Positions 2,592 to 58,178 of a DNA stretch of 64,000 bases are shown piece after piece; position 1 is the first letter of the stretch, and each line of letters opens with the position of its first letter. This DNA is from Candidatus Babeliales bacterium (GTDB taxonomy: Bacteria; Babelota; Babeliae; Babelales; JACPOV01): the NCBI GenBank assembly GCA_020054235.1, contig JAGVLQ010000004.1:60652-124651 (forward strand), in the 5' to 3' direction. The notes below the pieces were generated by a model that worked only from the letters and a program-made list of their open reading frames with translations, did not search any database and was not told the origin of the DNA. The position numbers and the translations under genes were made by a program.

Positions 2592-2599
2592 ATATTAAA

Positions 2600-2637
2600 A
2601 AACAAAGGAAGTTAATAAAAAATTGCTTCCTTTGTTT
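2600..2637 (+). terminator. Rho-independent terminator-like hairpin after the 1206-2591 gene
   Basis: aaacaaaggaag (2600-2611) pairs perfectly with cttcctttgttt (2626-2637) and is followed by a short T-rich tail. The loop is 14 nt, which is rather long. Confidence 0.5.
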
Positions 2638-2684
2638 TTCTCAGGCTATACTACCTTAACAATAAAACAAACATGGTAGTACTT

Positions 2685-4043: not shown

Positions 4044-4794
4044 GAAAATCATTGATGGTCATTTGTTGTGCACGTAACAACAAATAGTTTTCTGGAATTT
4101 TTTTTAGGTCAAACTGCACTTGAGAAAGATTATTTTTTAACGTGCGTCTTGGTTGATGAAAACATACTTTGATAAATTTCCAAAACTGTTGTTCATCAGG
4201 TATTTCTGCAACATGTTTCTTAGGCTTAAAATACAACAAGCGAGAAAAAACTTTAGGTGGTGGTTCAAAAGAACCTGGTGGAATTTTGTTCATTTTTTTC
4301 CACTCAAAGTAGTATTGAAAAAATAATGAGGGATACCCATAACCTCTTCCTGATGTTTTCAAAATTTTTTCCGCAACTTCCTCTTGCATCATAACAACAC
4401 CTTCAGCAAACAAATCTCTGTTTTTTTGTATCAAATGCAAAATAGGAAAGGTAATTTGATAAGGAAGATTTGAAAGCAAAACCCAAGGCTTATGAGGCTG
4501 CAAAACGGATGAATCAATATCCAAAATATTTTCATGAAAAATTGTTAACCGATGATCATCAATTGTTTCTTTGATATAATTAACCCAATCAGGATCAATT
4601 TCATAAATCCAAAGACGTGCTATTGGCGTTTGCAAAATAGAACGCGTCAAAAAGCCATCGCCGCAACCGATTTCCATGACACTTGAAGAGGCATCAAGTT
4701 GCACAGCGCTGATCATATGATCAACCACTGATTGATCGCGCAAAAAATGTTGTCCAAATTTCTTTTTGACCGGGATGCCTTGAATTAATTTCAT
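4009..4794 (-). CDS. rsmA: 16S rRNA (adenine1518/1519-N6)-dimethyltransferase
   Basis: Carries KKKFGQHFLRDQSVVDHMI, the SAM motif MEIGCGDGFLT and NLPYQIT. At 261 aa this is a canonical KsgA/RsmA. Confidence 0.9.
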   Translation of the reverse strand: MKLIQGIPVKKKFGQHFLRDQSVVDHMISAVQLDASSSVMEIGCGDGFLTRSILQTPIARLWIYEIDPDWVNYIKETIDDHRLTIFHENILDIDSSVLQPHKPWVLLSNLPYQITFPILHLIQKNRDLFAEGVVMMQEEVAEKILKTSGRGYGYPSLFFQYYFEWKKMNKIPPGSFEPPPKVFSRLLYFKPKKHVAEIPDEQQFWKFIKVCFHQPRRTLKNNLSQVQFDLKKIPENYLLLRAQQMTINDFLTLWNILRIDD

Positions 4795-4797
4795 TAT

Positions 4798-5847
4798 CTA
4801 TTTCATTAATGCTTCTTTAAAGAAATCAAGCTCTTCAAGCACTTTTCCTGCGCCTTTCACCACAGCAAGCAAAGGATCTTCAGCCATAATGACAGGCAAT
4901 CCTGTTTCTTTAGAAATTAATTTATCAAGACCACGCAAGAGTGACCCGCCACCTGCCATAACAATACCACGATCAACTAAATCAGATGATAATTCTGGTG
5001 GTGTATTTTCTAAAGCAACGCGCACAACATCAACAATGGTCGCTATAGTTTCCAGCAACGATTCATGAACTTCTAAACTTGTTAAGGTAATTGTTTTTGG
5101 AACACCAGTTACAAGATCACGCCCTTTAACATGCATACTACTAGCATCAGCTTCTGGCATAACCGTACCAATTTGTATTTTAATTATTTCTGCCGTACGC
5201 TCACCAATTAATAAATTATATTTTCTTTTTACATATTGAACAATTGCTCGATCCATTTCATCGCCACCAACACGAACTGAGCGACAAAAGACTACATCTT
5301 TTAAGGTAATTACGGCAACTTCGGTAGTACCACCGCCAATATCAACAATCATGCTTCCGCAGGGTTCATGAACCGGAAGGCCTGCACCAATCGCTGCAGC
5401 CATTGGTTCCATAATAGTGTAAACTTCACGAGCACCTGCTTGTTTTGCAGAATCTTCTACTGCACGGCGTTCTACTTGTGTAATACCAGACGGCACACCG
5501 ATAATCATACGCGGACTGACCAGCATACTACGATTATCATGCACACGCCGAATAAAATAGCGCAACATGCTTTCAGCAAGTTCAAAATTTGCAATAACAC
5601 CATCGCGCAGTGGCCTGCAAGCAATAATACTTTCTGGCGTTTTTCCAAGCATCTCTTTTGCAGCTTTACCTGCGGCCAATACTTGATTAGTACCTGCTTT
5701 AACAGCAACAACTGAAGGCTCATCAAGAACAATACCACGATTACGAGAATATACCAGAGTATTTGCTGTACCTAAATCAATAGCAACATCATTAGAAAAA
5801 TAACTGAAAATTTTTTTGGCAGGAAAAAAATTAAACTTCATAAACAT
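4798..5847 (-). CDS. mreB: Rod-shape-determining actin homolog MreB
   Basis: Carries IDLGTANTLVY, VDIGGGTTEVAV and VMAGGGSLLRGLDKLI. 349 aa. Confidence 0.92.
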   Translation of the reverse strand: MFMKFNFFPAKKIFSYFSNDVAIDLGTANTLVYSRNRGIVLDEPSVVAVKAGTNQVLAAGKAAKEMLGKTPESIIACRPLRDGVIANFELAESMLRYFIRRVHDNRSMLVSPRMIIGVPSGITQVERRAVEDSAKQAGAREVYTIMEPMAAAIGAGLPVHEPCGSMIVDIGGGTTEVAVITLKDVVFCRSVRVGGDEMDRAIVQYVKRKYNLLIGERTAEIIKIQIGTVMPEADASSMHVKGRDLVTGVPKTITLTSLEVHESLLETIATIVDVVRVALENTPPELSSDLVDRGIVMAGGGSLLRGLDKLISKETGLPVIMAEDPLLAVVKGAGKVLEELDFFKEALMK

Positions 5848-7315: not shown

Positions 7316-7936
7316 ATGAAAAAAATATTTATTCTCTTTTTTATTTTTGGATCATTAAGCTCAAAAGCTATGGAGAGAAAACCTATTGTAGGTTATCTTG
7401 CTCTTAATATGAAAAAACGACCGGAAATTGCTGGATACCCTGAAAATTCTTGTTTGGCACAATACTCGCCCAAACATAAAATTCAAAATTCACTTAACCT
7501 AAAGGTATCTGCCGAAGAACTCCTTTTTCCTATAATAGCATGGCCAGAAAAAGAGCAATCATATAAAAATCCCCCGGCTCGTGAAATACTGCAAAGCTAT
7601 CCCGAACATTTAGATTTTGAAACACTAAAAAATTTAAAGGATGGAGAAAAAATACAACTTGTTTTTTCTGAATATACGTTTATTTTAACCGCTCGACAAA
7701 CAAAAGACCAAGAAGACCCTAACAAAATTCTTTTTGAGGAAGCACTGCGACAGCAAATAAAAAAAGCATTAGAAGGCTCTTTTGATTATTGCACTGAAAA
7801 AAAAGAACTAACCATGTTAATTGATGCAAAAATTTTAGAACAACAAAAAAAAAAACACACCGCTGGTTTTGAATATCATCCCCTAACAGCAAAAGTTAGA
7901 AAAAAATATGAAGAATTTCTTAACAATAAACAATAA
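7316..7936 (+). CDS. Secreted protein, member 1 of a six-paralog tandem family (novel domain)
   Basis: Signal peptide, then the family motifs VGYLALN, PEIAGYPE, YPEHLDFETLKNLKDGEKIQLV, TFILTARQ, LFEEALRQQIKKALEG and YHPLTAKVRKKYEEFL. Confidence 0.7.
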   Translation: MKKIFILFFIFGSLSSKAMERKPIVGYLALNMKKRPEIAGYPENSCLAQYSPKHKIQNSLNLKVSAEELLFPIIAWPEKEQSYKNPPAREILQSYPEHLDFETLKNLKDGEKIQLVFSEYTFILTARQTKDQEDPNKILFEEALRQQIKKALEGSFDYCTEKKELTMLIDAKILEQQKKKHTAGFEYHPLTAKVRKKYEEFLNNKQ

Positions 7937-8597
7937 AATCAAAAAAATAATAATTATTCTAGGTATCTTTTTGAGTATAATTAACCTCAAAGCTGGCGGT
8001 TCTTTTTCAAAAAATAGCTCGATTAATAAAGAAAAAAAAACACACTTTGAAGGTTTAATTACCCTTGACACTCAAACATGGCCTAGGCTGGTCGGTCTTC
8101 AAAAGCCATCCCAATCAACTTTTCTTGAACCAACAACCCTCTTACCTTTAAACAATAAAAAAGAGCTAACGCCCGATTCACTTCTCTTACCAATTAAAGC
8201 ATGGACACCAGAAATTGAATCGGAACTTCAAGACCTTTTTTTTCATACAAATCAACTCGAAGGAAAAATAATACCACAATACTTTGATCTTGAAACTCTG
8301 ATATATCTAATGAAAAAAAAGACTTTATCTTTTACTCTTGGAGAAAGAACCTTCACCTTAACAATTCCGCAACAACCCGAATCGGAAATATCATTTAAAA
8401 AAACATTAGATGATCAACTTAAAAAAGCATTAACTGGTTATTTAAGTTATATAACTGCTGAAAAAGAAACGCTTATTGAAAAAGGAATTTTAGAAAATGA
8501 ATCATCTGAAAATGCAGATTTTTCATACCATCCTTTAACCAAAAAATATCGTTTGCTTTTAGAAACTTTTTTAGAAGAAATAAAAAAAAATGAATAA
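7908..8597 (+). CDS. Secreted protein, member 2 of the six-paralog family
   Basis: Hydrophobic N-terminus, then SLLLPIKAWTPE, YFDLETLIYL, TFTLTIPQQ, SFKKTLDDQLKKALTG, LIEKGILE and YHPLTKKYRLLLETFLEE. The ATG overlaps member 1 by 29 nt, so the start is uncertain. Confidence 0.6.
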   Translation: MKNFLTINNKIKKIIIILGIFLSIINLKAGGSFSKNSSINKEKKTHFEGLITLDTQTWPRLVGLQKPSQSTFLEPTTLLPLNNKKELTPDSLLLPIKAWTPEIESELQDLFFHTNQLEGKIIPQYFDLETLIYLMKKKTLSFTLGERTFTLTIPQQPESEISFKKTLDDQLKKALTGYLSYITAEKETLIEKGILENESSENADFSYHPLTKKYRLLLETFLEEIKKNE

Positions 8598-8639
8598 CAT
8601 AAGAAGTTCCTCTGCTGAAAAGAGAAGGAATAAGTATAC

Positions 8640-9713
8640 ATGCTTACAATTCTGCTTTTTTTGATGATATCTTCTTTTGTTAATTCTTTTGCCATGGAAC
8701 AACGCAATTTATTACACTTTAATGATTTGATTGCATATTACCAAAAACATCCAACTCACCATGAACTAAAGGATGCATTTGATCTCTATAATAACGAATC
8801 AACAAAATTTGAGGGTCTACAAAAAATTCAAGCTCTCGCCACAGCAGAAAATCCACATCCACTAGCACAATATGTTATGGGAACCATACGATTAAAAGAA
8901 AATAAAACATTAAGTGCAATTGCCTATTTTTCAAAATGTAACCATCCTTTAGCCAAAATGGCATTGTTTCAACGCTATCAAGACCTAAATCAAAAAGATA
9001 AAGCCTTTCAAATTTTGCAAGAAAACTGTGTTTGTGAAATTCCTTATATTGTTAATTATACTCAAACTCTAAAATTCTATTTTCATCAACCAGCTCTTGA
9101 TGCCTTATATAATTTAGCACAAGAAGGGAACTTAGCTGCAAGAACTAAACTCCAAGAATTACAGGAAAAAAAAAGAGAGCAGATTGTTTTTAGCGGCGAT
9201 CTTTTCTTGATTCCAGATACCACAGCAAAGCTCTTAAATGAGCACCCTTACTTCAAAAATTTAAACCCAGACGATTTGTTTTTTAAGGTTGCTATAAAAA
9301 ATATCAGCTCTTCAGACCCAAAGGAATTTTATAAGCCTGACTTTTTTCAAACTCCTGAGTATATACCATTTTCTCTGCTCAAAAACCTTGAAGAAAATGA
9401 TCAATTTTGCTTAAAATTTGCAGGCATCAAATGGGTTCTTACTGCAAGTCAAAAAAAATCAGGGTATATCGGCAACAGAGATTTTGGGCAAGTAAAAAAA
9501 CTTCTTATTGAAAAAGTATTTAACTTTGGACCAGATTATAAAAAAGAAGATGAAGAATTTCTAATGAAAAATACTGTAATAGAAAAAGGACACGTGAAAC
9601 ACCCTTTTTTTTATCCTATTCAGGACACTCTTATTAAAGGTTTTGTTTTAACAAAAAAAGTCGAAGAAAAATATAGACTATATTTAGAATCAAAAGATGA
9701 CAATCGACAATAG
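8640..9713 (+). CDS. Secreted Sel1/TPR-like repeat protein fused to the six-paralog family domain (member 3)
   Basis: Signal peptide. The N-terminal half has Sel1-like helical repeats (HPLAQYVMGTIRL...AIAYFSKCNHPLAKMALFQRY). The C-terminal half carries the family motifs DDLFFKVAIKN, YIPFSLLKNLEENDQFCLKF, KWVLTASQ and LTKKVEEKYRLYLE. Confidence 0.6.
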   Translation: MLTILLFLMISSFVNSFAMEQRNLLHFNDLIAYYQKHPTHHELKDAFDLYNNESTKFEGLQKIQALATAENPHPLAQYVMGTIRLKENKTLSAIAYFSKCNHPLAKMALFQRYQDLNQKDKAFQILQENCVCEIPYIVNYTQTLKFYFHQPALDALYNLAQEGNLAARTKLQELQEKKREQIVFSGDLFLIPDTTAKLLNEHPYFKNLNPDDLFFKVAIKNISSSDPKEFYKPDFFQTPEYIPFSLLKNLEENDQFCLKFAGIKWVLTASQKKSGYIGNRDFGQVKKLLIEKVFNFGPDYKKEDEEFLMKNTVIEKGHVKHPFFYPIQDTLIKGFVLTKKVEEKYRLYLESKDDNRQ

Positions 9714-9721
9714 GAGTATTA

Positions 9722-10303
9722 ATGAAAAAAATTATGTTACTCAGCATCTTTATTCCATTTGTTATCAATGCTGCGGAAAAACAAGAACAGAGCGTATATA
9801 AAGGAACACTCGTCTTAGAAAATCAGATTCCTTTTCTTTTTGGCACTGGCAATGCATTTGGCAACAAAGACAGTTTAGCAAAATTAGGGTTTAAGCACCT
9901 GAAAGCGGATGAACTTCTTTTTAATGTAACAGTCAGAAATGAAAATGACGAAGCTGAATTCTCCAGAAGACCACATACCTATCCTTACTCAATATTTCCA
10001 GGTTTTTTGCCATTTTCTATGATCAAAGATCTCCAAGAAGGTGATCAACTGTGTGTAGCGCTATCCGGCTTTAAATGGTGCTTAACAGCTCAAAAAATGA
10101 ATTTCTATCAAGAATTAAATTTTGAAGAAGCACGCAAAAACTGTCTTCTTGAGGCATTACAAAAAGGAGTACTCTATAATGAGAACGATAAAGAATTTTT
10201 AATTGCGATGAAAATTATAGAAACAATACAAAACTCCGAAAGACCCATGGCGATGTTAACCAATCAAGTCAAAACAGATTATAAGAATTTTCTAGAAAAT
10301 TAA
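9722..10303 (+). CDS. Secreted protein, member 4 of the six-paralog family
   Basis: Signal peptide, then DELLFNVTVRN, FLPFSMIKDLQEGDQLCVAL, KWCLTAQK, NFEEARKNCLLEALQKG and LTNQVKTDYKNFLE. Closest to member 3. Confidence 0.65.
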   Translation: MKKIMLLSIFIPFVINAAEKQEQSVYKGTLVLENQIPFLFGTGNAFGNKDSLAKLGFKHLKADELLFNVTVRNENDEAEFSRRPHTYPYSIFPGFLPFSMIKDLQEGDQLCVALSGFKWCLTAQKMNFYQELNFEEARKNCLLEALQKGVLYNENDKEFLIAMKIIETIQNSERPMAMLTNQVKTDYKNFLEN

Positions 10304-10316
10304 TAAAGGAAATTGC

Positions 10317-10961
10317 ATGAAAAAAATACTTTCTACCATCTTTTTTTTTGTTGCACTTTCAGCACCTGCTTCTGAAAATAAAAAAGAAATCATTACCGGT
10401 TACATAGCTTTAAATACCGAAAACGATCCAGCGCTTGGCGAATATCGAGACGATAAAAATTCTTTTGATCCTATAATTATTCTTGAAGAATATTTCGATG
10501 AAAAATTACCACCGGAGACTCTTTTACTTTCCGTATTAGTATGGAATGAGGAACATTCACTTACAACATTCAACATTGGTTATCCTCAGAGTATTAAATA
10601 CCTTTTTCCAACGCGTCTTAATTTTGATCGGTTGAAAACATTAAAAGAAGGGAATCTCCTCGATGTTACAGATGCATCTGGCAGGAGATTTTTATTAAAA
10701 GCAACGCAACAAATAAAAAACTCTAACATTTCTTTTGAACAAGCATTGAGAAATCAAGTCAAAAGAGCCTTACATGGAGAGCTCAAAATAATTCACGATA
10801 CAGAATTAATTAAAGATGGCATACTTGAGCCAAGTTCTGGTTCTTGGGTTGAAGTGGATCCTGTGGTAAGAAGATGGGAAAGGAATCCTAAAGGGTGTAC
10901 ATTAACTGAAAAATATAGAAAGCCGCTTGAAAAATTTTTAGAAAATAGTGATCAACAATAA
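10317..10961 (+). CDS. Secreted protein, member 5 of the six-paralog family
   Basis: Signal peptide, then ITGYIALN, PETLLLSVLVWNEE, LNFDRLKTLKEGNLLDV, RFLLKATQQ, SFEQALRNQVKRALHG, LIKDGILE and LTEKYRKPLEKFLE. Confidence 0.7.
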   Translation: MKKILSTIFFFVALSAPASENKKEIITGYIALNTENDPALGEYRDDKNSFDPIIILEEYFDEKLPPETLLLSVLVWNEEHSLTTFNIGYPQSIKYLFPTRLNFDRLKTLKEGNLLDVTDASGRRFLLKATQQIKNSNISFEQALRNQVKRALHGELKIIHDTELIKDGILEPSSGSWVEVDPVVRRWERNPKGCTLTEKYRKPLEKFLENSDQQ

Positions 10962-10979
10962 AAACTAAAAGGAGTTTTT

Positions 10980-11615
10980 ATGAAAAAAATATTTTTTATT
11001 ATCACACTTTTAACTACAGTCGGTGCACAGGCTGGAGGTTGGCTTTCAAAAGAAAAAGAAACACCGCCACCACCTAAAACAATTACGGGATTTATCGCAT
11101 TAATACCCAACAAATGGCCAGAACTTGCTGGCTATCCTGAACTGTGTATAACTCCTTATATGACCACAACAAGAAAATTAGAAGAAGCCTTCAAGAAAAA
11201 ATTATCGCCAGAAACATTGCTATTGCCCGTTGCAACATGGAATGAAGAACAACCTGAAGGCTTCAGTGCCAGAAAAATTGGCGTACGATTTCCGGAACAC
11301 TTGGATTTTGAAATGCTCAAAAATATTAAAGAAAATGATGAATTAAAGGTGCAAATTTCTACGATTACTTTTCTTTTAACAGCAAAGCAAACAACAGAAA
11401 ATTCTCAAGTTCGCTTTGAAGATGTTCTTAAAAATCAAATTGAAAAAGCTTTAAAAGGTCATCTAATCTATGATGTTGGTAAAGAGAAAGAAGAATTAAT
11501 TAAGAATGGCATTTTGGAAAAAGAAAAAATTAAAGACCCAATGTATAGTTCTCTACACCTTTTAACTGAAAAACATCGAAAACCACTTGAGCAATTTTTA
11601 GAAGAACAAAAATAA
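10980..11615 (+). CDS. Secreted protein, member 6 of the six-paralog family
   Basis: RBS aaaggag; signal peptide ending AQA. Motifs ITGFIAL, PELAGYPE, PETLLLPVATWNEE, FPEHLDFEMLKNIKENDELKV, TFLLTAKQ, RFEDVLKNQIEKALKG, LIKNGILE and LTEKHRKPLEQFLE. Confidence 0.7.
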   Translation: MKKIFFIITLLTTVGAQAGGWLSKEKETPPPPKTITGFIALIPNKWPELAGYPELCITPYMTTTRKLEEAFKKKLSPETLLLPVATWNEEQPEGFSARKIGVRFPEHLDFEMLKNIKENDELKVQISTITFLLTAKQTTENSQVRFEDVLKNQIEKALKGHLIYDVGKEKEELIKNGILEKEKIKDPMYSSLHLLTEKHRKPLEQFLEEQK

Positions 11616-14465: not shown

Positions 14466-15239
14466 TTACTCTTCTTCCTTGGTGTTTTCTAACAGCTGGA
14501 TATTTCTCTTGAAAAAATTTTGTTGCTCTTGCATCTCATGCAAATTAATACCAAGTTCTCTCCCTTGTAGATATGAATCCATGCCCACCTTTTTTATTGC
14601 TTGAAGTTCAAATTCATCTTCAACTTCATTCTTTACTTGATTAAAAAGATTTTCATCATCTAAATATTTTGCATTATTTTGCCTATACTCTTCTGACATC
14701 ATTTGTTTAGAAATTTTCTGTGCATCTTCAAAATTCCAATTTAATACTCTTGAAATAGCAGCAAAAATTTTGTCAGAATCATTACTACGATAAATAAAAA
14801 ACAGCTCCTGCAATAAATAGTAAAGATTTTCGTTTAAAAATGTAGGATCATTTTCATACAAAATTGGTACAAATCGATAACGCCCTAAAAGAAAAAGCAA
14901 TTGATAAAAATCAAGAATCCGTTGATCTTTTTTCCTGTTTGCACCATGGCGAATTAAAAGGTCTGCTAACTCTAGGTTATCTCTAAAAAGCGCATAATAA
15001 AGTGGAGTTCCGTAATATGCAGATTTAAAAGTTTTATTGTCATTATACTTAACAAAATAATATTTTTTTTCAAAATCGACAGCACCTTGTTTACAAAGCT
15101 CTTTTATTTTTTCAAAATTTAATGTACCTAAAGCCTCCACAATCTCATTTTCTAATTTTATCTCTTTTGAAAGTTGTTTTGAGTCCATAGAATATGCAGC
15201 AGTTGATAATAACCCAAAAATGAGTAGGCTCTTTTTCAT
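14466..15239 (-). CDS. Ankyrin-repeat protein with signal peptide (paralog A of three)
   Basis: Signal peptide MKKSLLIFGLLSTAAYS and the ANK-like unit GTPLYYALFRDNLELADLLIRHGANR. The conserved C-terminal module is GMDSYLQGRELGINLHEMQEQQNFFKRNIQLLENTKEEE. Confidence 0.7.
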   Translation of the reverse strand: MKKSLLIFGLLSTAAYSMDSKQLSKEIKLENEIVEALGTLNFEKIKELCKQGAVDFEKKYYFVKYNDNKTFKSAYYGTPLYYALFRDNLELADLLIRHGANRKKDQRILDFYQLLFLLGRYRFVPILYENDPTFLNENLYYLLQELFFIYRSNDSDKIFAAISRVLNWNFEDAQKISKQMMSEEYRQNNAKYLDDENLFNQVKNEVEDEFELQAIKKVGMDSYLQGRELGINLHEMQEQQNFFKRNIQLLENTKEEE

Positions 15240-16042
15240 TCTTCTTCTTCCTTGGTATTTTCTAACAGCTGGATATTCCGTTTTAAAAAATTTTGCTGTT
15301 CTTGCATCTCATGCAAGCTGATACCAAGCTCTCTGCCTTGCAGATATGAATGTATACCTACTTTTTGGATATCTTTTAAATTTTTAAGTTTAAATTCTTT
15401 TGCTACTTGATCCATTGTTTCATTAAGCAGATTTTCATTTTCTAAAATTTCTACTGCTTTTTGGGCAGAATCACGAAATAGGCTCCAGCCACTTTTGGCA
15501 TATTCTAAAGGAGTGAGCTTATTAAACTGAAGATTACTCTGAGAACCATTATCAAAATGAGCTTTCTGCTTTGCATAATCGGGAAAAAACAATAAAATTC
15601 CAGCAATAAGTTTATGACTATTTTCTGGTACATGAGTATCAACTGCTCGATGCAATAAATTTCCACCAAATAGCCTATCCCCACCATTAGAATGATATTT
15701 GTAAAGAATTGGCAAAAATTGATAATGCCCCCAGCAACAAAGCTCTTGGTAGGCTAGCGTATCAGGCTCAGCACCATAACCAACTAAAAGCTCCCCTAAT
15801 TCTAGGTTATTTATATAAAGTGCAAAATCAAAGGGTGTTTTGGACATGCCGCATTCATGTGATGGAAATTTATAGATAATGCTAAACTCTTTCTTAAAAT
15901 TTATTGCACCCTTTTTGCAAAGCTCTTCAATTTTTACAAAGTCTAACTTGGCGAATGCGTGCGAAATTTCTCTTTCTTCTTGATCCATAGAATAAATTAT
16001 TGTTGTTGCAAGCAAACTAAAAATTAATAACCACTTTTTCAT
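15236..16042 (-). CDS. Ankyrin-repeat protein with signal peptide (paralog B of three)
   Basis: ANK-like units KTPFDFALYINNLELGELLVGYGAEPD, GNLLHRAVD and LTPLEYAKSG. C-terminal module GIHSYLQGRELGISLHEMQEQQNFLKRNIQLLENTKEEEE. ATGA overlap with paralog A. Confidence 0.7.
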   Translation of the reverse strand: MKKWLLIFSLLATTIIYSMDQEEREISHAFAKLDFVKIEELCKKGAINFKKEFSIIYKFPSHECGMSKTPFDFALYINNLELGELLVGYGAEPDTLAYQELCCWGHYQFLPILYKYHSNGGDRLFGGNLLHRAVDTHVPENSHKLIAGILLFFPDYAKQKAHFDNGSQSNLQFNKLTPLEYAKSGWSLFRDSAQKAVEILENENLLNETMDQVAKEFKLKNLKDIQKVGIHSYLQGRELGISLHEMQEQQNFLKRNIQLLENTKEEEE

Positions 16043-16908
16043 TCCTTTTCTTCCTTGGAATTTAGTTGATTATTCCTTTGTAAAAAATACTTTTGCTCAT
16101 ACATCTCTCCAACAGACATACCAATTTCTCTACCTATACTAAATAGATCAATTCCTAGAGTATTTTGTAGTATTTCCAGTTTTTCTTTAGCCTTCTCCAC
16201 CGTAAATTCACCTTCAACCTTTTCTATCTTGTCCATAAGCAGTTTTGTATCATTCAAAATTTCAAAAGCTTTTTGAGCGATCAATGTCTCATTCTGTTTT
16301 TGCTGTGCATATTCAAGAGGAATAAGTTGTTCTTTAAAATTTTTTTCATCAAGCATCTGCTTGCCAAACAGTAAAATACATGCTGCAATCATTTCTTGTA
16401 CGGTATTTTCATTACAAGAATCAACTGCAATATGCAAAAGATTTTCACCAATATGATTTTCATATTTGAGTCCATACTCCAAAAAAATTGGTAAAAATTT
16501 ATAACGCCCATATTGAATTACTTTATAAAAAAGTTTTAAATCTTGAAAGTTGGGGTCAGCACCATAGCGACATAGAACTTTGGCAAGATGAGGATTGTCA
16601 ATATCGATAGCAAATTCCAATGGGGAAACGGTAAAATTTCGTATACGACACGTTAAATTCTCTGGATCTTCTATTTTTACAAACAGATCTAGAGGACTAT
16701 TAAGATTTATTGTATTGTTTGAACAAAAGGCACAAACATCCTTTATGGTGCCTTCAACTAAAACCTGCTCAAACTTTTGAACTGAGCTTTGCATTGCATG
16801 CAAAAAAGAAAAGAAAATTAGAAAAAAACCTAAGCTTGTTTTTATACAAATAGAGAGGCTATATCTACAAATTCTGAGAAATACATAAATAAAATTAACG
16901 GTGCTCAT
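16039..16908 (-). CDS. Ankyrin-repeat protein (paralog C of three)
   Basis: ANK-like units VSPLEFAIDIDNPHLAKVLCRYGADPN, GENLLHIAVD and LIPLEYAQQK. The C-terminal module is diverged: GIDLFSIGREIGMSVGEMYEQKYFLQRNNQLNSKEEKE. Four-base overlap with paralog B. Confidence 0.65.
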   Translation of the reverse strand: MSTVNFIYVFLRICRYSLSICIKTSLGFFLIFFSFLHAMQSSVQKFEQVLVEGTIKDVCAFCSNNTINLNSPLDLFVKIEDPENLTCRIRNFTVSPLEFAIDIDNPHLAKVLCRYGADPNFQDLKLFYKVIQYGRYKFLPIFLEYGLKYENHIGENLLHIAVDSCNENTVQEMIAACILLFGKQMLDEKNFKEQLIPLEYAQQKQNETLIAQKAFEILNDTKLLMDKIEKVEGEFTVEKAKEKLEILQNTLGIDLFSIGREIGMSVGEMYEQKYFLQRNNQLNSKEEKE

Positions 16909-29714: not shown

Positions 29715-31018
29715 TGACAGAAGAAAAAAAATTAAGTTTTTGGCAAGCAACACTCATTACTATCAACGTCATGTTTGGCAGTGGTATTTTTATCAATACC
29801 GTGAATTTAGGAAAAATAGCAGGTGTATTTGGCTTTTTAAGTTATGCCACGGTGGCTCTTATTTTGCTTCCCCTCATTTTTTCTTTAATGGCCCTGGTAA
29901 AGCGCTATCCTGAAGGTGGTTTTTATGTTTATGCAGCCAAAGAACTTGGCTCATATTGGGGATTTTTAAGCGCGTGGGCGTACGCTACGGGCAAACTTGC
30001 TTCAGCGGCATTGCTTATTCATGTTTTTACTATGCTTATTCGAACTATAATAACACCGCTGGCAGCCATCAATCCATTCTTGATCGATTTTTTCATTTTA
30101 GGCATTTTTATGTGGCTCAATCATTATGCCCTTAAAACAAGCACGCGAATAATTTATGGTTTTATTTTTTGCAAAGTTACCCCAATTTTATTTGCCATTC
30201 TTGCAAGTATCTATTTGATGGGAAACTGGCATGTACCAACAGAAAGTCTTTTATTTTCTGGCATTCCGCTTTCTATTCCGCTCGTGCTTTATGCCTTTGT
30301 TGGTTTTGAAACAGCGTGCTCAATAAGTCTTCGGATCGAAAATCCTGCACGCAATGCTGCGCGGGTAATTCTTTATTCATTTTTATTTACGGTTATTATT
30401 ACTACCTTGTATCAATTAGTCACGTTTCTGGCCATAGGTCCTCAACTGATGAAAGCGGAAGGGTTCCTTGAAATTTTTCCCACTTTTTTTGTGCATCTTT
30501 TTGTCAAACATCACCCTGCAACTGTGCACATCGTAAACATTTTTCATATAGCAGCAGCTGTTTCTGCATTAGGCGGTAGTTACGGCATGATTTTCAGTAA
30601 TGCATGGAATTTTTATGTCATCGCAGAAAACAAGCATATGTTTTTTTCTGAAACATTAACGAACAAAAATAGCTACGGCATTCCCTTTGGCTGTGTACTT
30701 TTCGAAGGATTCATCTGTGCTTTTTATATGATTGTTACGCAAGCAAATCAAATTATTCTGCAACAAATTAGCGTATTTGGTTGTTCAATAGCTTTTCTGC
30801 TCAGCGTGCTCGCCTTATTGAAAATTCATTATGCAAAAAAAGAATATCTGCTTTCTTCTGTGACGCAGTATTTAGCCTGCGCAAGTACTACTGCTCTTTT
30901 GATAATGTGTATTCGCAATTTCAGTTACTGGGGCATCGAATATTTACTTTTATTTATTGGCAATCTTGTTTGTGGCTCATTGATGTATAGGTGGCAGAGA
31001 AAGATCACCGCAATTTAA
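29702..31018 (+). CDS. APC-superfamily amino-acid permease
   Basis: 438 aa with about 12 predicted TM helices and the N-terminal APC pattern FWQATLITINVMFGSGIF. An alternative start at 29714 gives a TAATG overlap with the upstream stop. Confidence 0.7.
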   Translation: MDTIMTEEKKLSFWQATLITINVMFGSGIFINTVNLGKIAGVFGFLSYATVALILLPLIFSLMALVKRYPEGGFYVYAAKELGSYWGFLSAWAYATGKLASAALLIHVFTMLIRTIITPLAAINPFLIDFFILGIFMWLNHYALKTSTRIIYGFIFCKVTPILFAILASIYLMGNWHVPTESLLFSGIPLSIPLVLYAFVGFETACSISLRIENPARNAARVILYSFLFTVIITTLYQLVTFLAIGPQLMKAEGFLEIFPTFFVHLFVKHHPATVHIVNIFHIAAAVSALGGSYGMIFSNAWNFYVIAENKHMFFSETLTNKNSYGIPFGCVLFEGFICAFYMIVTQANQIILQQISVFGCSIAFLLSVLALLKIHYAKKEYLLSSVTQYLACASTTALLIMCIRNFSYWGIEYLLLFIGNLVCGSLMYRWQRKITAI

Positions 31019-32066
31019 GCGTCATTAAGGCACACAAGCATAAAATTAATGAAATAATCCCAAAGCGCACGGTAATTTTTGATTCCTGCCAGCCCATTAA
31101 TTCAAAGTGGTGATGAATCGGTGCCATTTTAAACATACGCTTGCCTAGAAATTTATACGATAAAACTTGTAAAATTACCGAAAGTGCTTCGACTACAAAA
31201 AGTCCTCCTGACAAAGGCAAAAGTAATTCTTGTTTGGAAATAAGCGCCATCAAAGCCAAGCCACTTCCTAAAGCCAATGAACCGATATCTCCCATAAAAA
31301 TTTGTGCCGGATAGGTGTTGTACCACAAAAAACCAATAGAAGCGCCAACCAGCGTTGCACCAATGATTGCAATTTCCGCACTATGAGCAAAAGGAATATG
31401 CAAATAATGCGCAACTTTAAAGTTGCCGGCCAAATAACAGATCAATGAAAATGTTGCAAAATTGGGAATTAATGAAGTTATAGCAAGCCCATCCAAGCCG
31501 TCGGTTAAATTCACCGCATTGCTGCATCCAACAATAATAAATACTGCCCACGGAATAAATAACCAACCAAGATTTGGATTGAACCACTTAAAAAAAGGAA
31601 AACTTACCGTTGTTGATAATCCTGAAACCATCAAAAAAATCACTGTCAATGAAGCTATCGAAACTTGAAGCCAAAATTTCGAACGCGCAGAAATACCTTT
31701 GTGTCGCCTAATTTTGCACCAATCATCCCAAAAACCAAGTGCACCAAATCCAATTAAACAGAATAAAAAAATCCAAACACTCGGTTTGGTTAAATTGCAC
31801 CATAAAAAACTATTGAAAAGTACAACTGACAAAATAAGCAACCCGCCCATGGTGGGCATATTATCTTTACTTTTATGCGTTTCGGGTGTCCATTCGCGTG
31901 CTTTTGATCTGAAAAATTTTTGAGAAAATTCTAAAAAAAAACGCCCAAATAAAAATGAGCAAAATAACGCTGTTAACAATGCAGCCATGGCACGAAAGCT
32001 TACATAGTGCACAACATTAAAAAGAATCCAATAACTTTTGAGAATTTGGCTCAAATGATAGAGCAT
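31005..32066 (-). CDS. mraY: Phospho-N-acetylmuramoyl-pentapeptide transferase
   Basis: Carries KSKDNMPTMGG, NAVNLTDGLDGLA, FMGDIGSLALG and APIHHHFELMGW. Confidence 0.92.
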   Translation of the reverse strand: MLYHLSQILKSYWILFNVVHYVSFRAMAALLTALFCSFLFGRFFLEFSQKFFRSKAREWTPETHKSKDNMPTMGGLLILSVVLFNSFLWCNLTKPSVWIFLFCLIGFGALGFWDDWCKIRRHKGISARSKFWLQVSIASLTVIFLMVSGLSTTVSFPFFKWFNPNLGWLFIPWAVFIIVGCSNAVNLTDGLDGLAITSLIPNFATFSLICYLAGNFKVAHYLHIPFAHSAEIAIIGATLVGASIGFLWYNTYPAQIFMGDIGSLALGSGLALMALISKQELLLPLSGGLFVVEALSVILQVLSYKFLGKRMFKMAPIHHHFELMGWQESKITVRFGIISLILCLCALMTLKLR

Positions 32067-32142: not shown

Positions 32143-32265
32143 GCGCTCGTGGTGAGTGATTTCGAAGAAATCGTATCGAACCATACGAGACCGAATAAAA
32201 ATAAATTTTTGTACTCCTATGGTTCGATACATTTTTCCTAACGGAAAAACACTCACCATGAGCGC
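32143..32265. repeat. Inverted doublet of a roughly 48-nt hairpin repeat unit (REPIN/BIME-like), locus 1
   Basis: The left unit is gcgctcgtggtgagtgatttcgaagaaatcgtatcgaaccatacgag. The right unit is its imperfect reverse complement (ctcctatggttcgatac...cactcaccatgagcgc). An AT-rich spacer separates them. The same unit recurs at 56914-57073 and 58071-58178. Confidence 0.75.
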
Positions 32266-32409
32266 CTTTTAATTTTTATTTCACTCTAACAATAATACCA
32301 ACTTTTAAGGTCAATTCATGTTAACCATTCTATGCAACTGGCACAAAAGCACAACTTTTAGATCTAAAGATACCAAAACAGGTTAAAAAGCCCTAAACAA
32401 GGGGCCCTT

Positions 32410-32437
32410 TTGACATTCCAATGACACTGGTTAAACT
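32410..32437 (+). promoter_or_regulatory. Candidate sigma70-type promoter for the 32578 gene
   Basis: TTGACA (32410-32415), 16 nt, then TAAACT (32432-32437). Such matches arise by chance in AT-rich DNA. Confidence 0.3.
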
Positions 32438-32577: not shown

Positions 32578-33108
32578 ATGAAATTATCAATTATTCAATC
32601 TACAGCGCTCGCTCTTGCATTTACCATCTCTTCATTAATTCCCGCAAACACGGAATGTGCTGCACGAACTGCACAACCAAATCAAAAAATCGATCCTATG
32701 ACAGAGGTGTACCAAGTTTTAGAAGAATGCCTTTTTCTAAGAGCAAATACCAGAACGGTCAATAAGCCATTCAGCTATTTTGTCGATAAACTCGTAGAAA
32801 TAGTAACAACAAATGCAAACTATTTTAAATCATACGGCGCAAATCTTGTTGAAACATTCAAACAAGACATGAATAGCATTCGCAATGAGAAAAATGGTAT
32901 AAAAGTTGGTAAAGTATTAGTTCGTTATAAACAGTTTATGCCAGATTCAATGAAAAGCACTAATCCTCTACAACTTCTTAAAATACTAAAAAAACGTCTC
33001 GCTATTCAAGATGATGGCAGCGTCGATGAAGCTGTTGAACAATCAACAACAACCATGGAAAGAATTGTTGGCTTTATTGTTTCAATTAAAGAATATTTCT
33101 CTAAATAA
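32578..33108 (+). CDS. Hypothetical secreted protein
   Basis: 176 aa with signal peptide MKLSIIQSTALALAFTISSLIPA and a helical remainder. No family recognised. Confidence 0.55.
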   Translation: MKLSIIQSTALALAFTISSLIPANTECAARTAQPNQKIDPMTEVYQVLEECLFLRANTRTVNKPFSYFVDKLVEIVTTNANYFKSYGANLVETFKQDMNSIRNEKNGIKVGKVLVRYKQFMPDSMKSTNPLQLLKILKKRLAIQDDGSVDEAVEQSTTTMERIVGFIVSIKEYFSK

Positions 33109-33247: not shown

Positions 33248-35059
33248 ATGAAAAAAATAGAAAATTCATTTGATGTCATTGTTGTCGGTGGTGGTCACGC
33301 TGGTATTGAAGCTGCATATGCTGCCGCACGCATGGGATCAAAAACCCTACTTATTACCTTAGATTTAAAAAAAATTGGCTGGATGCCCTGCAACCCTGCT
33401 ATTGGTGGCATTGGCAAAGGGCACATTGTATTTGAAATTAGTGCTTTTGGTGGGCTCATGCCCAAATTATGCACAACAACTTATTTGCAAGCTCGTATGC
33501 TTAATACTAAAAAAGGTGCCGCAGTTCAAGGATTGCGCTTGCAAATTGACAAAGATGCCTACAACAAACAAAGTATTGAAGCCCTCAAAAACACAGAAAA
33601 CCTAACTCTTACGGCCGGGGCTGTCGAACAGCTTTTATTAGAAAATAACACCGTCAAAGGGATTGAAACCAAAGACGGTACTTTGTATTATGCACCAACC
33701 GTCGTGTTAACAACCGGCACTTTCTTAAATGGGTTAATGCATATTGGTGCTCAAAAAATTGTTGGTGGTCGCACCGGCGAAGGTGCTGTTAGTGGCCTTT
33801 CAAAAAATATCGCCTCACTCGGCCTAGAACTTGGCCGTTTAAAAACAGGAACGCCGCCGCGTTTATTGCGCGAAAGTTTAGATTTTTCTAAAATGACAGA
33901 ACAAGAACCTGATACCTTATCGTATCTTTTTGAATTTCATCCTCATGTCGTCAAAAATACCCACCCATGTTTTATTACCTACACCAATGAACAAACTCAC
34001 GAAATTATAAAAAATTCAGCCCACCTTTCACCGATTCTTTCAAAAGAAATAGTTTCACGAGGGCCACGATATTGCCCTTCAATAGAAGACAAAATTACTC
34101 GCTTTCCGGACAAAAACGGACATCATGTTTTTGTTGAACCCGAAACTGCATCATTTGATGAGGTATACCCAAATGGCATTTCAACTTCATTGCCATTAGA
34201 AATACAAGAAAAATATATTCGCTCAATTGCAGGCTTTGAACATGCCATCATTACAAAACCTGGTTATGCTGTTGAATATGATTTTGTTTTGCCTGATCAA
34301 CTTAAGCATACGCTTGAAGTTAAAAAATGTTTTGGCCTTTTTTTAGCCGGACAAATTAATGGTACCACCGGCTATGAAGAAGCCGCCGGCCAAGGTCTTG
34401 TTGCCGGCATTAATGCGCATTTAAAAAGTCATAATAAAGAGCCATATATTCTTTCCCGCAATAATAGCTACATTGGCGTTATGATTGATGATCTTGTTAC
34501 GCTCGGCGTTGATGAACCTTACCGCATGTTTACTTCACGTGCTGAGCGCCGCTTGCTTTTGCGCCAGGACAATGTTTTTTACCGTCTGTCAGATGATAGT
34601 TACAACCTGGGACTAATTGACAAAAAATTGTATCAAGAAATAAAAATTGAACAAGAATTGGTAGAGAATTCTGTTGCAAAAATTCGTTCAGGAAAGCAAA
34701 AAGATATATTGCCACTTTTAAGCCGCGATGAAAGCAATATCGATTTAATACGACAACTTGTAAAAGAACCGCTCAATGACCGTGCAGCTTTATCAATTTG
34801 GGCAGAAATTAGGTATTACCATTATATCCAGCGTGAGCATAAAGAAGTTCAAAAAATTGAAAAATACCAGGAACTTTCCATTCCTGAAGATTTTTGCTAT
34901 ACCCAAGTTCCAGGATTATCTAAAGAATTGCAACAAAAACTTAGCAAGCATAAACCACCCACTATTGCCCAAGCATTCTTAATTCCTGGTATAACTCCTG
35001 CAGCAATTTCATTATTGATAATGCGTATTCACAACAGTGGTAAAAAGCAGCTCGTGTAA
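33248..35059 (+). CDS. mnmG: tRNA uridine 5-carboxymethylaminomethyl modification enzyme
   Basis: FAD motif FDVIVVGGGHAGIEAA plus GPRYCPSIEDK and LFLAGQINGTTGYEEAAGQG. 603 aa. Confidence 0.92.
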   Translation: MKKIENSFDVIVVGGGHAGIEAAYAAARMGSKTLLITLDLKKIGWMPCNPAIGGIGKGHIVFEISAFGGLMPKLCTTTYLQARMLNTKKGAAVQGLRLQIDKDAYNKQSIEALKNTENLTLTAGAVEQLLLENNTVKGIETKDGTLYYAPTVVLTTGTFLNGLMHIGAQKIVGGRTGEGAVSGLSKNIASLGLELGRLKTGTPPRLLRESLDFSKMTEQEPDTLSYLFEFHPHVVKNTHPCFITYTNEQTHEIIKNSAHLSPILSKEIVSRGPRYCPSIEDKITRFPDKNGHHVFVEPETASFDEVYPNGISTSLPLEIQEKYIRSIAGFEHAIITKPGYAVEYDFVLPDQLKHTLEVKKCFGLFLAGQINGTTGYEEAAGQGLVAGINAHLKSHNKEPYILSRNNSYIGVMIDDLVTLGVDEPYRMFTSRAERRLLLRQDNVFYRLSDDSYNLGLIDKKLYQEIKIEQELVENSVAKIRSGKQKDILPLLSRDESNIDLIRQLVKEPLNDRAALSIWAEIRYYHYIQREHKEVQKIEKYQELSIPEDFCYTQVPGLSKELQQKLSKHKPPTIAQAFLIPGITPAAISLLIMRIHNSGKKQLV

Positions 35060-55909: not shown

Positions 55910-56827
55910 TTAATTTGTTACGTTTTTAAACCAATTGCGCGCTGACAAACCAGTTGGCGCTGGTTGTGTACCCTCGGACAATAAATTTTGTTTTTTGTCC
56001 ACACCCAGCCTGCCTGCGTATTCAATCCATTTTTGAGCAGCTGAAGGATTAGAACGATCTAGAATTTCATACTGGTTCCACCCTTCCCAGCGAGCACCTT
56101 GCGACGTGGTATCAGCTTCAAAATTAAGATAAAAATGATCTGGATAACTTGCATGGCCATATTTTGATGAATAAACAATCGGATGCGTATTTTCAAATGA
56201 AATATTTTTTGCATCGACCAAAATACCACTGCCATGATGTGAATAATAGCCACTAACAATGCGCCAATCTTCTTTTTGCACATCATAAATCAAGTTAAAA
56301 GTTGTACGTTCTAAATCAGCCTCATGGTCACCAACACTTTTTCCAAATACATCATAAACAAGCGGTTTCCAAAATTTCAAAAAAGGCGTAGCACCATTGA
56401 AAGGATAAAAATAAATAGTTTGCATGGTAGCGCTCTTTTCATCTTGGGCAACTTTAAAGTTAATATACATCGGCGCAACCACAGTGCCATTTTGTAAATC
56501 TATTCCAGCATAGGTTTTTTTATCACCATTTGGATCTAAGAAATTATTCGCTTCAGGATGATCAGCCAAATCTTGCGGTGTCACTGAGCCGGTTGCTTTT
56601 ATAGTCTGAAGTTTAGAATTTTTTAATGCAACGCGGTTTAAATACCAATCAAATGAACTTGGCTTGTAAGTTTCACCTTGCGCAAGATACACTAATGGCC
56701 CAAGTACTTGGACAACTTTATCAACATTGTAAATATCTTCGATTGCTGTTCGCTCTTTTTCTTCTAGTTCCATAGCATGCACAGAAATAAAGCCCATGAA
56801 AGCTATACTCAATGCTAATTTTTTCAT
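55910..56827 (-). CDS. Vps62/DUF946-like secreted protein
   Basis: Signal peptide, then LGPLVYLAQGETYKPSSFDWYL, IYFYPFNG and VGDHEADLERTTFNL...SGYYSHHGSG. This matches my memory of the Vps62 (PF06101) pattern. Confidence 0.5.
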   Translation of the reverse strand: MKKLALSIAFMGFISVHAMELEEKERTAIEDIYNVDKVVQVLGPLVYLAQGETYKPSSFDWYLNRVALKNSKLQTIKATGSVTPQDLADHPEANNFLDPNGDKKTYAGIDLQNGTVVAPMYINFKVAQDEKSATMQTIYFYPFNGATPFLKFWKPLVYDVFGKSVGDHEADLERTTFNLIYDVQKEDWRIVSGYYSHHGSGILVDAKNISFENTHPIVYSSKYGHASYPDHFYLNFEADTTSQGARWEGWNQYEILDRSNPSAAQKWIEYAGRLGVDKKQNLLSEGTQPAPTGLSARNWFKNVTN

Positions 56828-56913: not shown

Positions 56914-57073
56914 GGTCCGTTCGTGGTGAGGATTTTTCGAAGAAAAATGTCTCGAACCATACGAACTCAAAAAATTAGTTTAAAAATAATTTTTATTATT
57001 TATCCTTTCTAAAAGTTTTATATTAACACGGTCCGTTTGGTTCGAGACGCCTACGGCTCCTCACCACGAACGG
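56914..57073. repeat. Inverted doublet of the hairpin repeat unit, locus 2
   Basis: Forward unit ggtccgttcgtggtgaggatttttcgaagaaaaatgtctcgaaccatacgaactc, then an AT-rich 61-nt spacer, then reverse unit ggtccgtttggttcgagacgcctacggctcctcaccacgaacgg. Confidence 0.75.
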
Positions 57074-57090
57074 AAAATTTAATCACCATT

Positions 57091-58065
57091 ATGAAAACAT
57101 TGCCATCAGCGATTGCCAATTATTTGATTCGTTTTTTTTACATTCAAATGTTTATTACTCTAGCTTCATTACCCATTCTTATCAACTGGGGTTTGCCGTT
57201 TTCAGTAATGAGTCCAATTGCCAATCTTATCTTTACCCCTTTTTTGATGGCATTTTTGCTCCTTGCTTCATTGGTATTTTTTTTCGAACTGCTTTCGTTA
57301 CCAAATGACTGGTTGACCTATCTCCTTGAAAAAATAGTGTCATGCTGGTCAAGCATTTTGAGTTTTCATTCACCATGTTGGTTAGTAACCTTTACCAAGC
57401 CTTCGTTAATTTTTTTTGTTTTAATGCTTGGTGCCACATTTTTTATTCTCCATAGCAAAAAAATCAAAACAATGGTGCATGCTATTTGGTTTTTTTTCCT
57501 GTTATTTTGTGCTGTTATTGGATATCTTACCTTGCAACGACCAACACAAGCGGTTTTACGTCTACCTTGCAATCGTGGTGAAATTACCGTTTTTAAAAAA
57601 AAGAGCCAAACTATTCTTGTCGACCCAGGCTACTTTGGCCAATCCGCATCAACACCATCATGGATTGAATATACCTTAATGCCAACCTTACATCAGAAAT
57701 TGGGTTCTTCACAACTTGATCATGTTATTGCAATGCAGGCAAATATTTTTACTTTTGAAGCTCTACAAACACTCTGCAAACTTATCGAAATCAAAAATTT
57801 GTATTTAGTTTCCTGGCAAGGCACTGGTAGCAAAAAATTATATCGAGAATATAGAGAATTAAAAAAAATTATGCAGGAAAAAAATATAATCATGCACCGC
57901 ATTGGCTTTAACAAAAAAATGATGCAACTTGGTATTGATTTACTTGAAATTATTCCCTTAGAACAAAAATTACCGTATCATGAAATTACATTTCCGGCAT
58001 TACTAATACGTACTCAAGTGGACAATCAGGAAATTAATATTTATTCTGCAAAAATGAAAAAATGA
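57091..58065 (+). CDS. Truncated ComEC/Rec2-like protein (end of competence TM domain plus degenerate MBL-like domain)
   Basis: The TM region (MFITLASLPILINWGLPFSVMSPIANLIFTPFLMAF) resembles the distal competence domain. The C-terminal ILVDPGYFG...LDHVIAMQ resembles the ComEC metallo-beta-lactamase domain but lacks the His motif. The N-terminal half of a normal ComEC is absent. Start placed at 57091, just after the repeat. Confidence 0.45.
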   Translation: MKTLPSAIANYLIRFFYIQMFITLASLPILINWGLPFSVMSPIANLIFTPFLMAFLLLASLVFFFELLSLPNDWLTYLLEKIVSCWSSILSFHSPCWLVTFTKPSLIFFVLMLGATFFILHSKKIKTMVHAIWFFFLLFCAVIGYLTLQRPTQAVLRLPCNRGEITVFKKKSQTILVDPGYFGQSASTPSWIEYTLMPTLHQKLGSSQLDHVIAMQANIFTFEALQTLCKLIEIKNLYLVSWQGTGSKKLYREYRELKKIMQEKNIIMHRIGFNKKMMQLGIDLLEIIPLEQKLPYHEITFPALLIRTQVDNQEINIYSAKMKK

Positions 58066-58070
58066 AAAGT

Positions 58071-58178
58071 AGTTCGCACCCTTCGTTACACTGCCTAACC
58101 GCAGCACTCAGGGCGAACGGTTTAAATCCCGTTCATGGTGAGTGATTTTGAAAAAATCGTCTCGCACCATAGGAACTC
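58071..58178. repeat. Inverted doublet of the hairpin repeat unit, locus 3 (head-to-head)
   Basis: Reverse unit agttcgcacccttcgttacactgcctaaccgcagcactcagggcgaacgg, an 8-nt spacer, then forward unit ccgttcatggtgagtgattttgaaaaaatcgtctcgcaccataggaactc. Confidence 0.7.

Follow-up and report, generated by a model that had tools for sequence, protein, structure and literature searches.

Inverted hairpin doublets in a Candidatus Babeliales genome and the linkage of their repeat family to a small GIY-YIG gene

Described REP systems and the present repeat family

Repetitive extragenic palindromic (REP)-like repeats are among the commonest non-coding elements of bacteria. In the REPIN-RAYT systems, short extragenic imperfect palindromes with a 5′ GTAG tetranucleotide tag occur in many copies, pair as inverted doublets that form long hairpins, and flank the single-locus gene of a small nuclease, the REP-associated tyrosine transposase (RAYT), which is an HUH Y1 enzyme. 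To our knowledge, RAYT is the only REP enzyme known, and it is known for the GTAG class only. The DNA analysed here is a stretch of 64,000 nt from a Candidatus Babeliales genome (contig JAGVLQ010000004.1, positions 60,652 to 124,651; hereafter the window), with a guanine plus cytosine (GC) content of about 34%. It carries six hairpin units. These do not code for protein and belong to a family of REP-like interspersed DNA hairpins that is widespread and crosses phyla. At other loci, units of this family are tightly linked to the gene of a stand-alone GIY-YIG protein of about 95 aa.

The family shares with REPIN-RAYT systems the many short extragenic palindromes, the inverted doublets that form long hairpins, the 5′ tetranucleotide tag and the small nuclease gene at a single locus between repeats. 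It differs in its tag (NNTC-R, not GTAG), in its enzyme (a hydrolase of the GIY-YIG type instead of an HUH Y1 transposase), in a conserved GA/GA loop with a bulged T, and in spanning phyla and a wide range of base composition. The REPs described by Di Nocera et al. 2013 (PMC3733652), tagged CGTC or CCTC/TGTC, are likewise mainly alphaproteobacterial with additional occurrences in intracellular bacteria; their stems start with A-T, and their inverted dimers mostly join unlike units, as here. No dedicated transposase was found for the CGTC/CCTC-tagged alphaproteobacterial REPs in that study, which explicitly left the mobiliser of alphaproteobacterial REP classes open. Alphaproteobacterial copies of the present family begin CCTC-AT or CGTC-AT, and the window copies GTTC-G/A or GCTC-G/A. 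Classes CGTC-1 to CGTC-4 have a simple stem of 8–9 bp, a loop of 4–5 nt and a CCA tail, whereas the present units have a composite stem, an internal loop and a second hairpin; the peptides encoded by those classes (VIPAKAGI, DSRFRGND, VIAGLDPAIH) also differ, so these are other sequences.

Two further systems offer partial parallels. In the bacterial interspersed mosaic elements (BIMEs) of E. coli, Y and Z REPs alternate, so that orientation alternates and two unit types are paired, as in the present family, but the sequences are unrelated and no evidence for motifs of gyrase or the integration host factor (IHF) was seen here. The subterminal hairpins of IS200/IS605 elements and their gene-less derivatives are likewise imperfect and strand-specific, and have extrahelical bases that could be read by a small nuclease; no TnpA or TnpB was found in the present case, the gene-bearing element is only about 0.4 kb, and the enzyme has another fold.

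A covariance model (R1; 126 family members, 12 base pairs) run over the whole window with filters off returned exactly the six units, with the coordinates and orientations, that had been listed in an earlier reading made without database searches (the sequence-only reading). They score 37–52 bits (E 7e-8 to 1e-11), and the next-best match reaches 8 bits. A simple, loose pattern found 4–5 copies in the window versus 0 in 100 shuffles. All six units are intergenic, form two tail-to-tail doublets and one head-to-head doublet (Table 1), and fold into the same hairpin architecture, in keeping with the proposal that each can fold on itself.

Further copies were found outside the window. An exact-pattern scan of 185,579 species genomes gave at least 120 matches, mostly in Alphaproteobacteria; among the matches listed were Bradyrhizobium, Rhodopseudomonas, Caulobacter, Hyphomicrobiales and Novosphingobium, together with one genome of TM6 and several uncultured bacteria of low GC. 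When the variant of the window itself was used to scan metagenome contigs, at least 120 matches were again obtained, mostly on contigs of GC 0.28–0.50, and across both scans unit-bearing DNA ranges from GC 0.28 to 0.72. The alphaproteobacterial consensus is CCTC-A-TGGT-GAGGAG-(GC hairpin)-CGTCTCGA-ACCA-TGAGG, and the low-GC consensus is CCGTTC-G-TGGT-GAGTG-(AT hairpin)-yGTATCGA-ACCA-T(A)CGAACGG. That protist-associated Dependentiae and free-living Alphaproteobacteria have the family in common raises the question of horizontal spread. Three matches on viral contigs were chance matches within coding sequence, and one pattern match (L197:1443-1468, ggtgagccgcgatggattcgaacc) resembles the T-arm region of a tRNA, not a unit; the loose pattern can catch tRNA genes.

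Within 1.87 Mb of unit-bearing loci, a regular-expression detector found 523 units, versus 6 in shuffled sequence. Neighbouring units up to 150 nt apart comprise 95 head-to-head, 94 tail-to-tail and 4 direct pairs; in this family, by contrast with the CGTC REPs, the two inverted arrangements are equally common. Different types of the 4-bp stem P1 are combined in 164 of the 189 inverted pairs, which resemble the 'heterodimers' of Di Nocera et al. (PMC3733652). The sequence-only reading had compared the window units with REP, REPIN and BIME doublets, and that likeness is borne out by the excess of inverted over direct neighbours and by the long folds of same-P1 tail-to-tail doublets (−38 and −41 kcal/mol). 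In some units (L017:7677-7739 and L106:7263-7323), a short CCCT- or GGGA-type unit is nested in the apical region of a TGGT unit, which points to recursive growth or to insertion into hairpin loops already present.

The doublets differ between related genomes. In a syntenic Babeliales locus (L124), the spacer beside the same glycosyltransferase gene that borders the first window doublet holds a head-to-head doublet of short CCCT and TGCT units, and a further doublet lies upstream of a SpoU methylase gene, where the window has none; in a closer Babeliales relative (L127), no unit was found. Doublets have therefore been gained, lost or replaced on the timescale separating these genomes.

A GIY-YIG gene linked to the units

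All open reading frames (ORFs) of at least 100 aa from every fetched locus were clustered in an unbiased manner. The large clusters are ordinary families (ABC transporters, SDR enzymes and others). One cluster, of 7 ORFs of about 114 aa from 7 loci at a median distance of 19 nt from a unit, encodes a GIY-YIG domain. With jackhmmer, 12 GIY-YIG ORFs were found, and 21 after more loci had been fetched. Units lie at the flanks of the 14 main-clade genes in pattern-selected loci, usually in the order unit(+), gene, unit(−). Six loci (L248, L249, L255, L256, L260 and L265; Table 1) were picked by protein similarity alone in order to avoid ascertainment bias; units are present at both flanks in 6 of 6 by sequence reading, and R1 detects both flanks in four, a 3′ unit only in L256 and an upstream unit only in L249. 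One of the six (L260) is a Candidatus Babeliales assembly, and its units (TGGT/GAGTR...GTATCGA) are of the window's own type. Other ORFs flanked on both sides by units number only about 4 of about 5000. The GIY-YIG gene and the repeats are thus shown to be in tight physical linkage.

The linked protein, a stand-alone GIY-YIG domain, belongs to the UPF0213 family (PDB 1zg2, E 1e-17; also 1ywl), alongside E. coli YhbQ, BH0048 and EF2693, and is 26% identical to YhbQ. Its catalytic residues are kept: Tyr, Tyr, Arg and Glu are invariant in the 21 proteins, which also have a basic KGWxRxKK tail. Eukaryotic Slx1 is a structure-specific nuclease. The linked protein falls in the 'Slx1-like' stand-alone GIY-YIG group of Dunin-Horkawicz et al. 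2006 (PMC1564403). It matched none of the PADLOC defence models, and no NCBIfam model above its curated cut-off. Each gene that was looked up sits at one conserved locus across many samples, as RAYT genes do, in a context of chromosomal housekeeping genes. No link between UPF0213 proteins and repeats was found in searchable papers, nor any description of a repeat/GIY-YIG association in the searchable literature, which is an incomplete sample.

A profile search gave at least 7939 matches at E ≤ 1e-15, many of them on contigs of less than 1.5 kb; the hairpin family explains frequent spurious ORFs and assembly breaks. In several homologues, the C-terminal tail (…GSTSSP, …STSSGRTGE) is a translation of unit sequence. 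Some bare proteins of about 95 aa (P0136, P0150, P0152, P0153, P0174 and others) carry the JGI name 'tRNA/rRNA methyltransferase', probably carried over from the rare GIY-YIG-TrmH fusion noted in PMC1564403. A divergent second GIY-YIG subfamily (L036, L062) is without these units. The small gene of this subfamily in L062:7435-8000 (E 6e-24 to the main clade) has CGTC-3-type REP palindromes (gatcaccgggacaagcccggtgatgac) directly after it; linkage to GIY-YIG genes might extend to the 'transposase-less' REPs with a CGTC tag (Di Nocera et al.).

The reading favoured here, with a probability of about 0.6, is that the window units are gene-less REP-like copies and that the dedicated partner of the family is the UPF0213/Slx1-like GIY-YIG nuclease, not a RAYT. 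Since the GIY-YIG gene lies inside tail-to-tail doublets elsewhere, the window doublets look like gene-less versions of the unit-gene-unit module, for which the enzyme would be supplied in trans. The nuclease might recognise and cut either the hairpin, which is specific to one strand, or the branched structure that a doublet forms, and repair of the break by recombination or gene conversion could then maintain or spread the doublets. The more ambitious proposal, that hairpins and gene together form an unrecognised cross-phylum analogue of REPIN-RAYT in which the nuclease reads the hairpin and drives doublet maintenance or spread, is tentative, with a likelihood somewhat short of even. The linkage points towards a second kind of repeat-plus-enzyme system, apparently one not yet described.

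Several observations weigh against these proposals. No GIY-YIG gene or remnant was found in the 64-kb window (tblastn E > 1), and R1 found no units at the E. coli yhbQ locus. Given the divergence among the window units (84% identity between U1 and U5), nothing indicates that the family was recently active there. The protein-selected loci are relatives of the protein first found beside units and are therefore not fully independent phylogenetically. The immediate flanks do not always have the arrangement -> gene <-, exceptions being L037 and L080. GIY-YIG enzymes are hydrolytic, and we know of no strand-transfer chemistry in them and no precedent for transposition by such a protein, which favours a route based on recombination over true transposition.

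As the main rival explanation, the gene would simply have settled in the doublets. It would then be a parasite, a free-standing homing-type endonuclease gene residing in or targeting pre-existing tail-to-tail doublets, and some other enzyme, or processes of the host, would spread or keep the hairpins. The GIY-YIG fold is classic for homing endonucleases (PMC1564403), and the gene is always central in a doublet-like arrangement. In L037:4336-4978, a doublet of about 110 nt (a CCCT unit and an inverted TGGT unit) is directly repeated on either side of the GIY-YIG gene. This repeat may be the footprint of gene or doublet copying; duplication of a whole doublet is also what would be expected after insertion of the gene and repair. 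A parasite is nonetheless unlikely, as the gene is found at a single conserved locus in many samples instead of at many sites, the protein of about 95 aa has no DNA-binding extension typical of homing enzymes, and neither the ORF clusters nor the RayT search provided another candidate engine. An ordinary free-standing GIY-YIG homing endonuclease was rejected for the bare domain and for the chromosomal, not phage or intron, context.

If the more ambitious proposal is right, a function would be provided for the large orphan UPF0213/YhbQ-like family, and the 'missing enzyme' of the RAYT-less REPs of Alphaproteobacteria and intracellular bacteria may be supplied as well. A repeat family of Alphaproteobacteria, Dependentiae and uncultured low-GC bacteria is tied to a very small nuclease that is not a RAYT, and the nuclease together with a top-strand hairpin makes a concrete biochemical test.

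Unit structure and further alternatives

Each unit begins with a 5′ NNTC-R tag and the stem P1; next come a 2x2 internal loop, invariably GA/GA, and a G:C pair, then a bulged T and a K:M pair, and a free apical hairpin forms the tip. In an RNAalifold consensus of 108 units, R-TGGT pairs with ACCA-Y, GA stands opposite GA, a G:C pair follows, one T is bulged, and K:M and R:T are paired. Covariation was examined in 560 matches to the core alone, with P1 left unconstrained. As the database scans had selected for TGGT/ACCA, the 245 matches without this pair of sequences form the non-ascertained set; P1 is perfectly complementary in 162 of them, compared with 61 ± 5 (maximum 76 in 1000 shuffles) when partners are shuffled. 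Fully compensated P1 variants are of at least seven types, including TCCT/AGGA (100), CCCT/AGGG (29), TCCC/GGGA (15), TGCT/AGCA, TCTC/GAGA and TACT/AGTA. The K:M pair is G:C in 282 of the 560 matches, T:A in 265 and something else in 13.

Selection on the structure of the unit, for which the sequence-only reading had argued, is real by this measure. The two-sided stem change that it described in 58070-58120 (CCCT/AGGG for TGGT/ACCA) is likewise genuine, and as about 30 units elsewhere belong to this subtype too, that copy is a standard CCCT unit. The proposed stem pairing fared less evenly: the basal gttc/gaac stem exists in a loose form, but the GAG/CTC pairing, which leaves a GA bulge, is broken in half the family, whereas the GA/GA register stays intact and is favoured by covariation. 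With flexible register, a basal run of at least 5 bp occurs in 33% of units versus 17% of permuted controls; a fixed-register basal stem (P0) was poorly supported, about 50% of cells being unpaired. The NNTC-R tag is better conserved than its partner in the basal stem (CCTC 187, GTTC 146, GCTC 99, CGTC 39, with a purine next). The apical hairpin adopts the local base composition while the core stays constant, and in short forms of the unit it is replaced by a 5-nt loop.

The fold is strand-specific. G·T occurs at two pairs in 40–55% of units, so that only one strand folds well; on the opposite strand, G·T becomes a C·A mismatch and GA/GA becomes TC/TC. The GA/GA loop stands in the context 5′-YGAR-3′ on both strands, a context that favours tandem sheared G·A pairs, so that such pairs may form in the unit. 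A kink-turn was rejected by inspection: the GA/GA loop is without an adjoining 3-nt bulge, and the kink-turn register breaks the K:M covariation.

A structured RNA (a small RNA, an attenuator, a terminator or a stabiliser of mRNA) would also be compatible with the strong covariation and with the restriction of G·U-compatible pairs to one strand, and the invariant GA/GA loop and bulged U may be likened to RNA protein-binding motifs. This alternative, which the sequence-only reading had set beside a DNA hairpin, is weakened by the orientation of the units. In co-directional spacers they are sense in 30 cases and antisense in 34, and their spread over co-directional, convergent and divergent spacers of low-GC loci (64/31/24) mirrors the background. 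Searches of Rfam at the gathering score gave 0 matches on units in the window and 18 further loci, and in E-value mode only generic long-hairpin microRNA models, far below threshold, so that the units match no known family. Intrinsic terminators were rejected: no unit is terminator-like, two of the three window sites lie between divergent gene starts, and no 3′-end preference is seen. Nearly all neighbours are inverted pairs, units can be nested within other units, and the first window doublet lies upstream of its neighbour's predicted promoter. A role as RNA is distinctly unlikely, and the units are probably not RNA at all.

A classical REPIN system, mobilised by a RAYT encoded elsewhere in the genome, was the association suggested by the sequence-only reading, and the inverted doublets, the conserved 5′ tetranucleotide tag and the long REPIN-like folds are what such a system would have; a RAYT gene, normally present once per genome, could be located beyond the window. 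The suggestion did not hold up. A jackhmmer search seeded with E. coli RayT found nothing among ORFs of at least 60 aa in the window, as that reading had also observed for the window itself, or in the 1.87 Mb around the 523 units. No Y1 transposase appeared among the unbiased clusters of neighbouring ORFs, the tag is NNTC-R instead of GTAG, and the units flank a gene for a GIY-YIG nuclease; a RAYT is very unlikely as the family's mobiliser.

Equally improbable is that the units spread passively and serve as duplex DNA sites for a host protein (gyrase, a nucleoid protein or a regulator): the invariant GGTGAG and GTMTCGAACC have the length that a protein site would need, and E. coli REP/BIME elements bind IHF and gyrase (summarised in PMC2817692), but P1 changes freely in sequence with pairing kept, in at least seven compensated types, which argues for a folded single strand and not a duplex site, and the fold is good on one strand only.

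Other known elements were considered and rejected. Integron attC sites have, by inspection, their end motifs in a different order and form one-way arrays, not inverted pairs. For a miniature inverted-repeat element derived from an insertion sequence, no transposase family was present in the neighbouring ORF clusters and no target-site duplication was evident by eye at the window doublets. The window contains no tRNA or tmRNA genes, and the units are therefore not tRNA-derived.

Doublets and neighbouring genes in the window

Table 1. Hairpin units, doublets and the MnmG gene of the window, with the GIY-YIG loci selected by protein similarity
Feature	Position	Strand or arrangement	R1 score	Description
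U1	32143-32192	+	51.7 bits, E 1e-11	tag GCTC-G; P1 TGGT/ACCA; core GAGTG...GTATCGA; apical ATTTC-GAA-GAAAT
U2	32211-32265	-	47.0 bits	tag GCTC-A; P1 TGGT/ACCA; core GAGTG...GTATCGA; apical TTTTTCC-GTTA-GGAAAAA
Doublet 1	32143-32265	tail-to-tail (-> <-)		U1 and U2
U3	56917-56968	+	51.5 bits	tag GTTC-G; P1 TGGT/ACCA; core GAGGA...GTCTCGA; apical TTTTTC-GAA-GAAAAA
U4	57029-57073	-	37.3 bits	tag GTTC-G; P1 TGGT/ACCA; core GAGGAG...GTCTCGA; short apical GCC-GTA-GGC
Doublet 2	56917-57073	tail-to-tail		U3 and U4; spacer about 60 nt
U6	58070-58120	-	44.9 bits	tag GTTC-G; CCCT/AGGG P1 subtype; CCCT-GAGTG...GTAACGA-AGGG-TGCGAAC
U5	58129-58178	+	40.8 bits	tag GTTC-A; P1 TGGT/ACCA; one core change (TCGCACC)
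Doublet 3	58070-58178	head-to-head (<- ->)		U6 and U5; two different P1 types
MnmG gene	33248-35059			nearest named relatives Candidatus Babeliales/Dependentiae
L248	gene 4001-4288			GC 0.39; unit 3936-3985 (+); unit 4302-4351 (-)
L260	gene 5001-5297			GC 0.38; unit 4934-4983 (+); unit 5295-5344 (-)
L265	gene 2501-2785			GC 0.35; unit 2420-2482 (+); unit 2789-2842 (-)
L255	gene 4001-4297			GC 0.55; unit 3931-3987 (+); unit 4267-4301 (-)
L256	gene 4001-4297			GC 0.68; upstream short form, by eye; unit 4267-4301 (-)
L249	gene 4001-4300			GC 0.64; unit 3897-3932 (-) and short form 3956-3974 (+) upstream; downstream short forms, by eye

Doublet 1 lies in the spacer between two divergent genes, for a glycosyltransferase-4 protein (31005-32066, −) and a 176-aa protein (32578-33108, +), and is upstream of a sigma-70-like promoter of the latter located by a promoter scan (32410-32437). 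Doublet 2 is also between divergent genes, a Vps62-like gene (55910-56827, −) and the gene of a 342-aa protein (probable ATG near 57092, +). Doublet 3 occupies a co-directional spacer between the end of the 342-aa gene (58065) and a DJ-1/PfpI gene (ATG near 58203). Doublets 1 and 2 each fold as a long branched hairpin (−38.2 kcal/mol, z −11, and −41.1 kcal/mol, z −8.2, respectively), while the mixed-P1, head-to-head doublet 3 forms no single long hairpin and its units fold individually.

The 342-aa gene (57037-58065) is among the roughly 4 non-GIY-YIG ORFs in about 5000 that have a unit within 60 nt of both ends, with U4 upstream and U6 downstream. Its product matches no Pfam family above threshold, and has only a weak 'Competence' match (E 0.005). 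The product of 55910-56827 has a Vps62 domain (PF06101, E 1.5e-23); the occurrence of this eukaryote-type family in a bacterial protein fits the protist-associated lifestyle of Dependentiae.

Upstream of the gene preceding mnmG, a small GC hairpin ends in cccTTTTGACA and overlaps a TTGACA −35 box. It is present in the window (32385-32437) and in two Babeliales relatives (L124:7020-7055 and L127:5185-5205), and is probably a conserved promoter or operator.

Two groups of tandem paralogues lie elsewhere in the window. Three or four genes at 14466-16908 (−) encode proteins of 257–289 aa, and their DNA segments are 75–83% identical (D1, D9, D14). At 7316-11615 (+), six ORFs of about 190–360 aa share a ATGAAAAAAATA start and internal repeats (families D2, D6, D7, D12 and D16), and look like an expansion of a lipoprotein or secreted-protein family.

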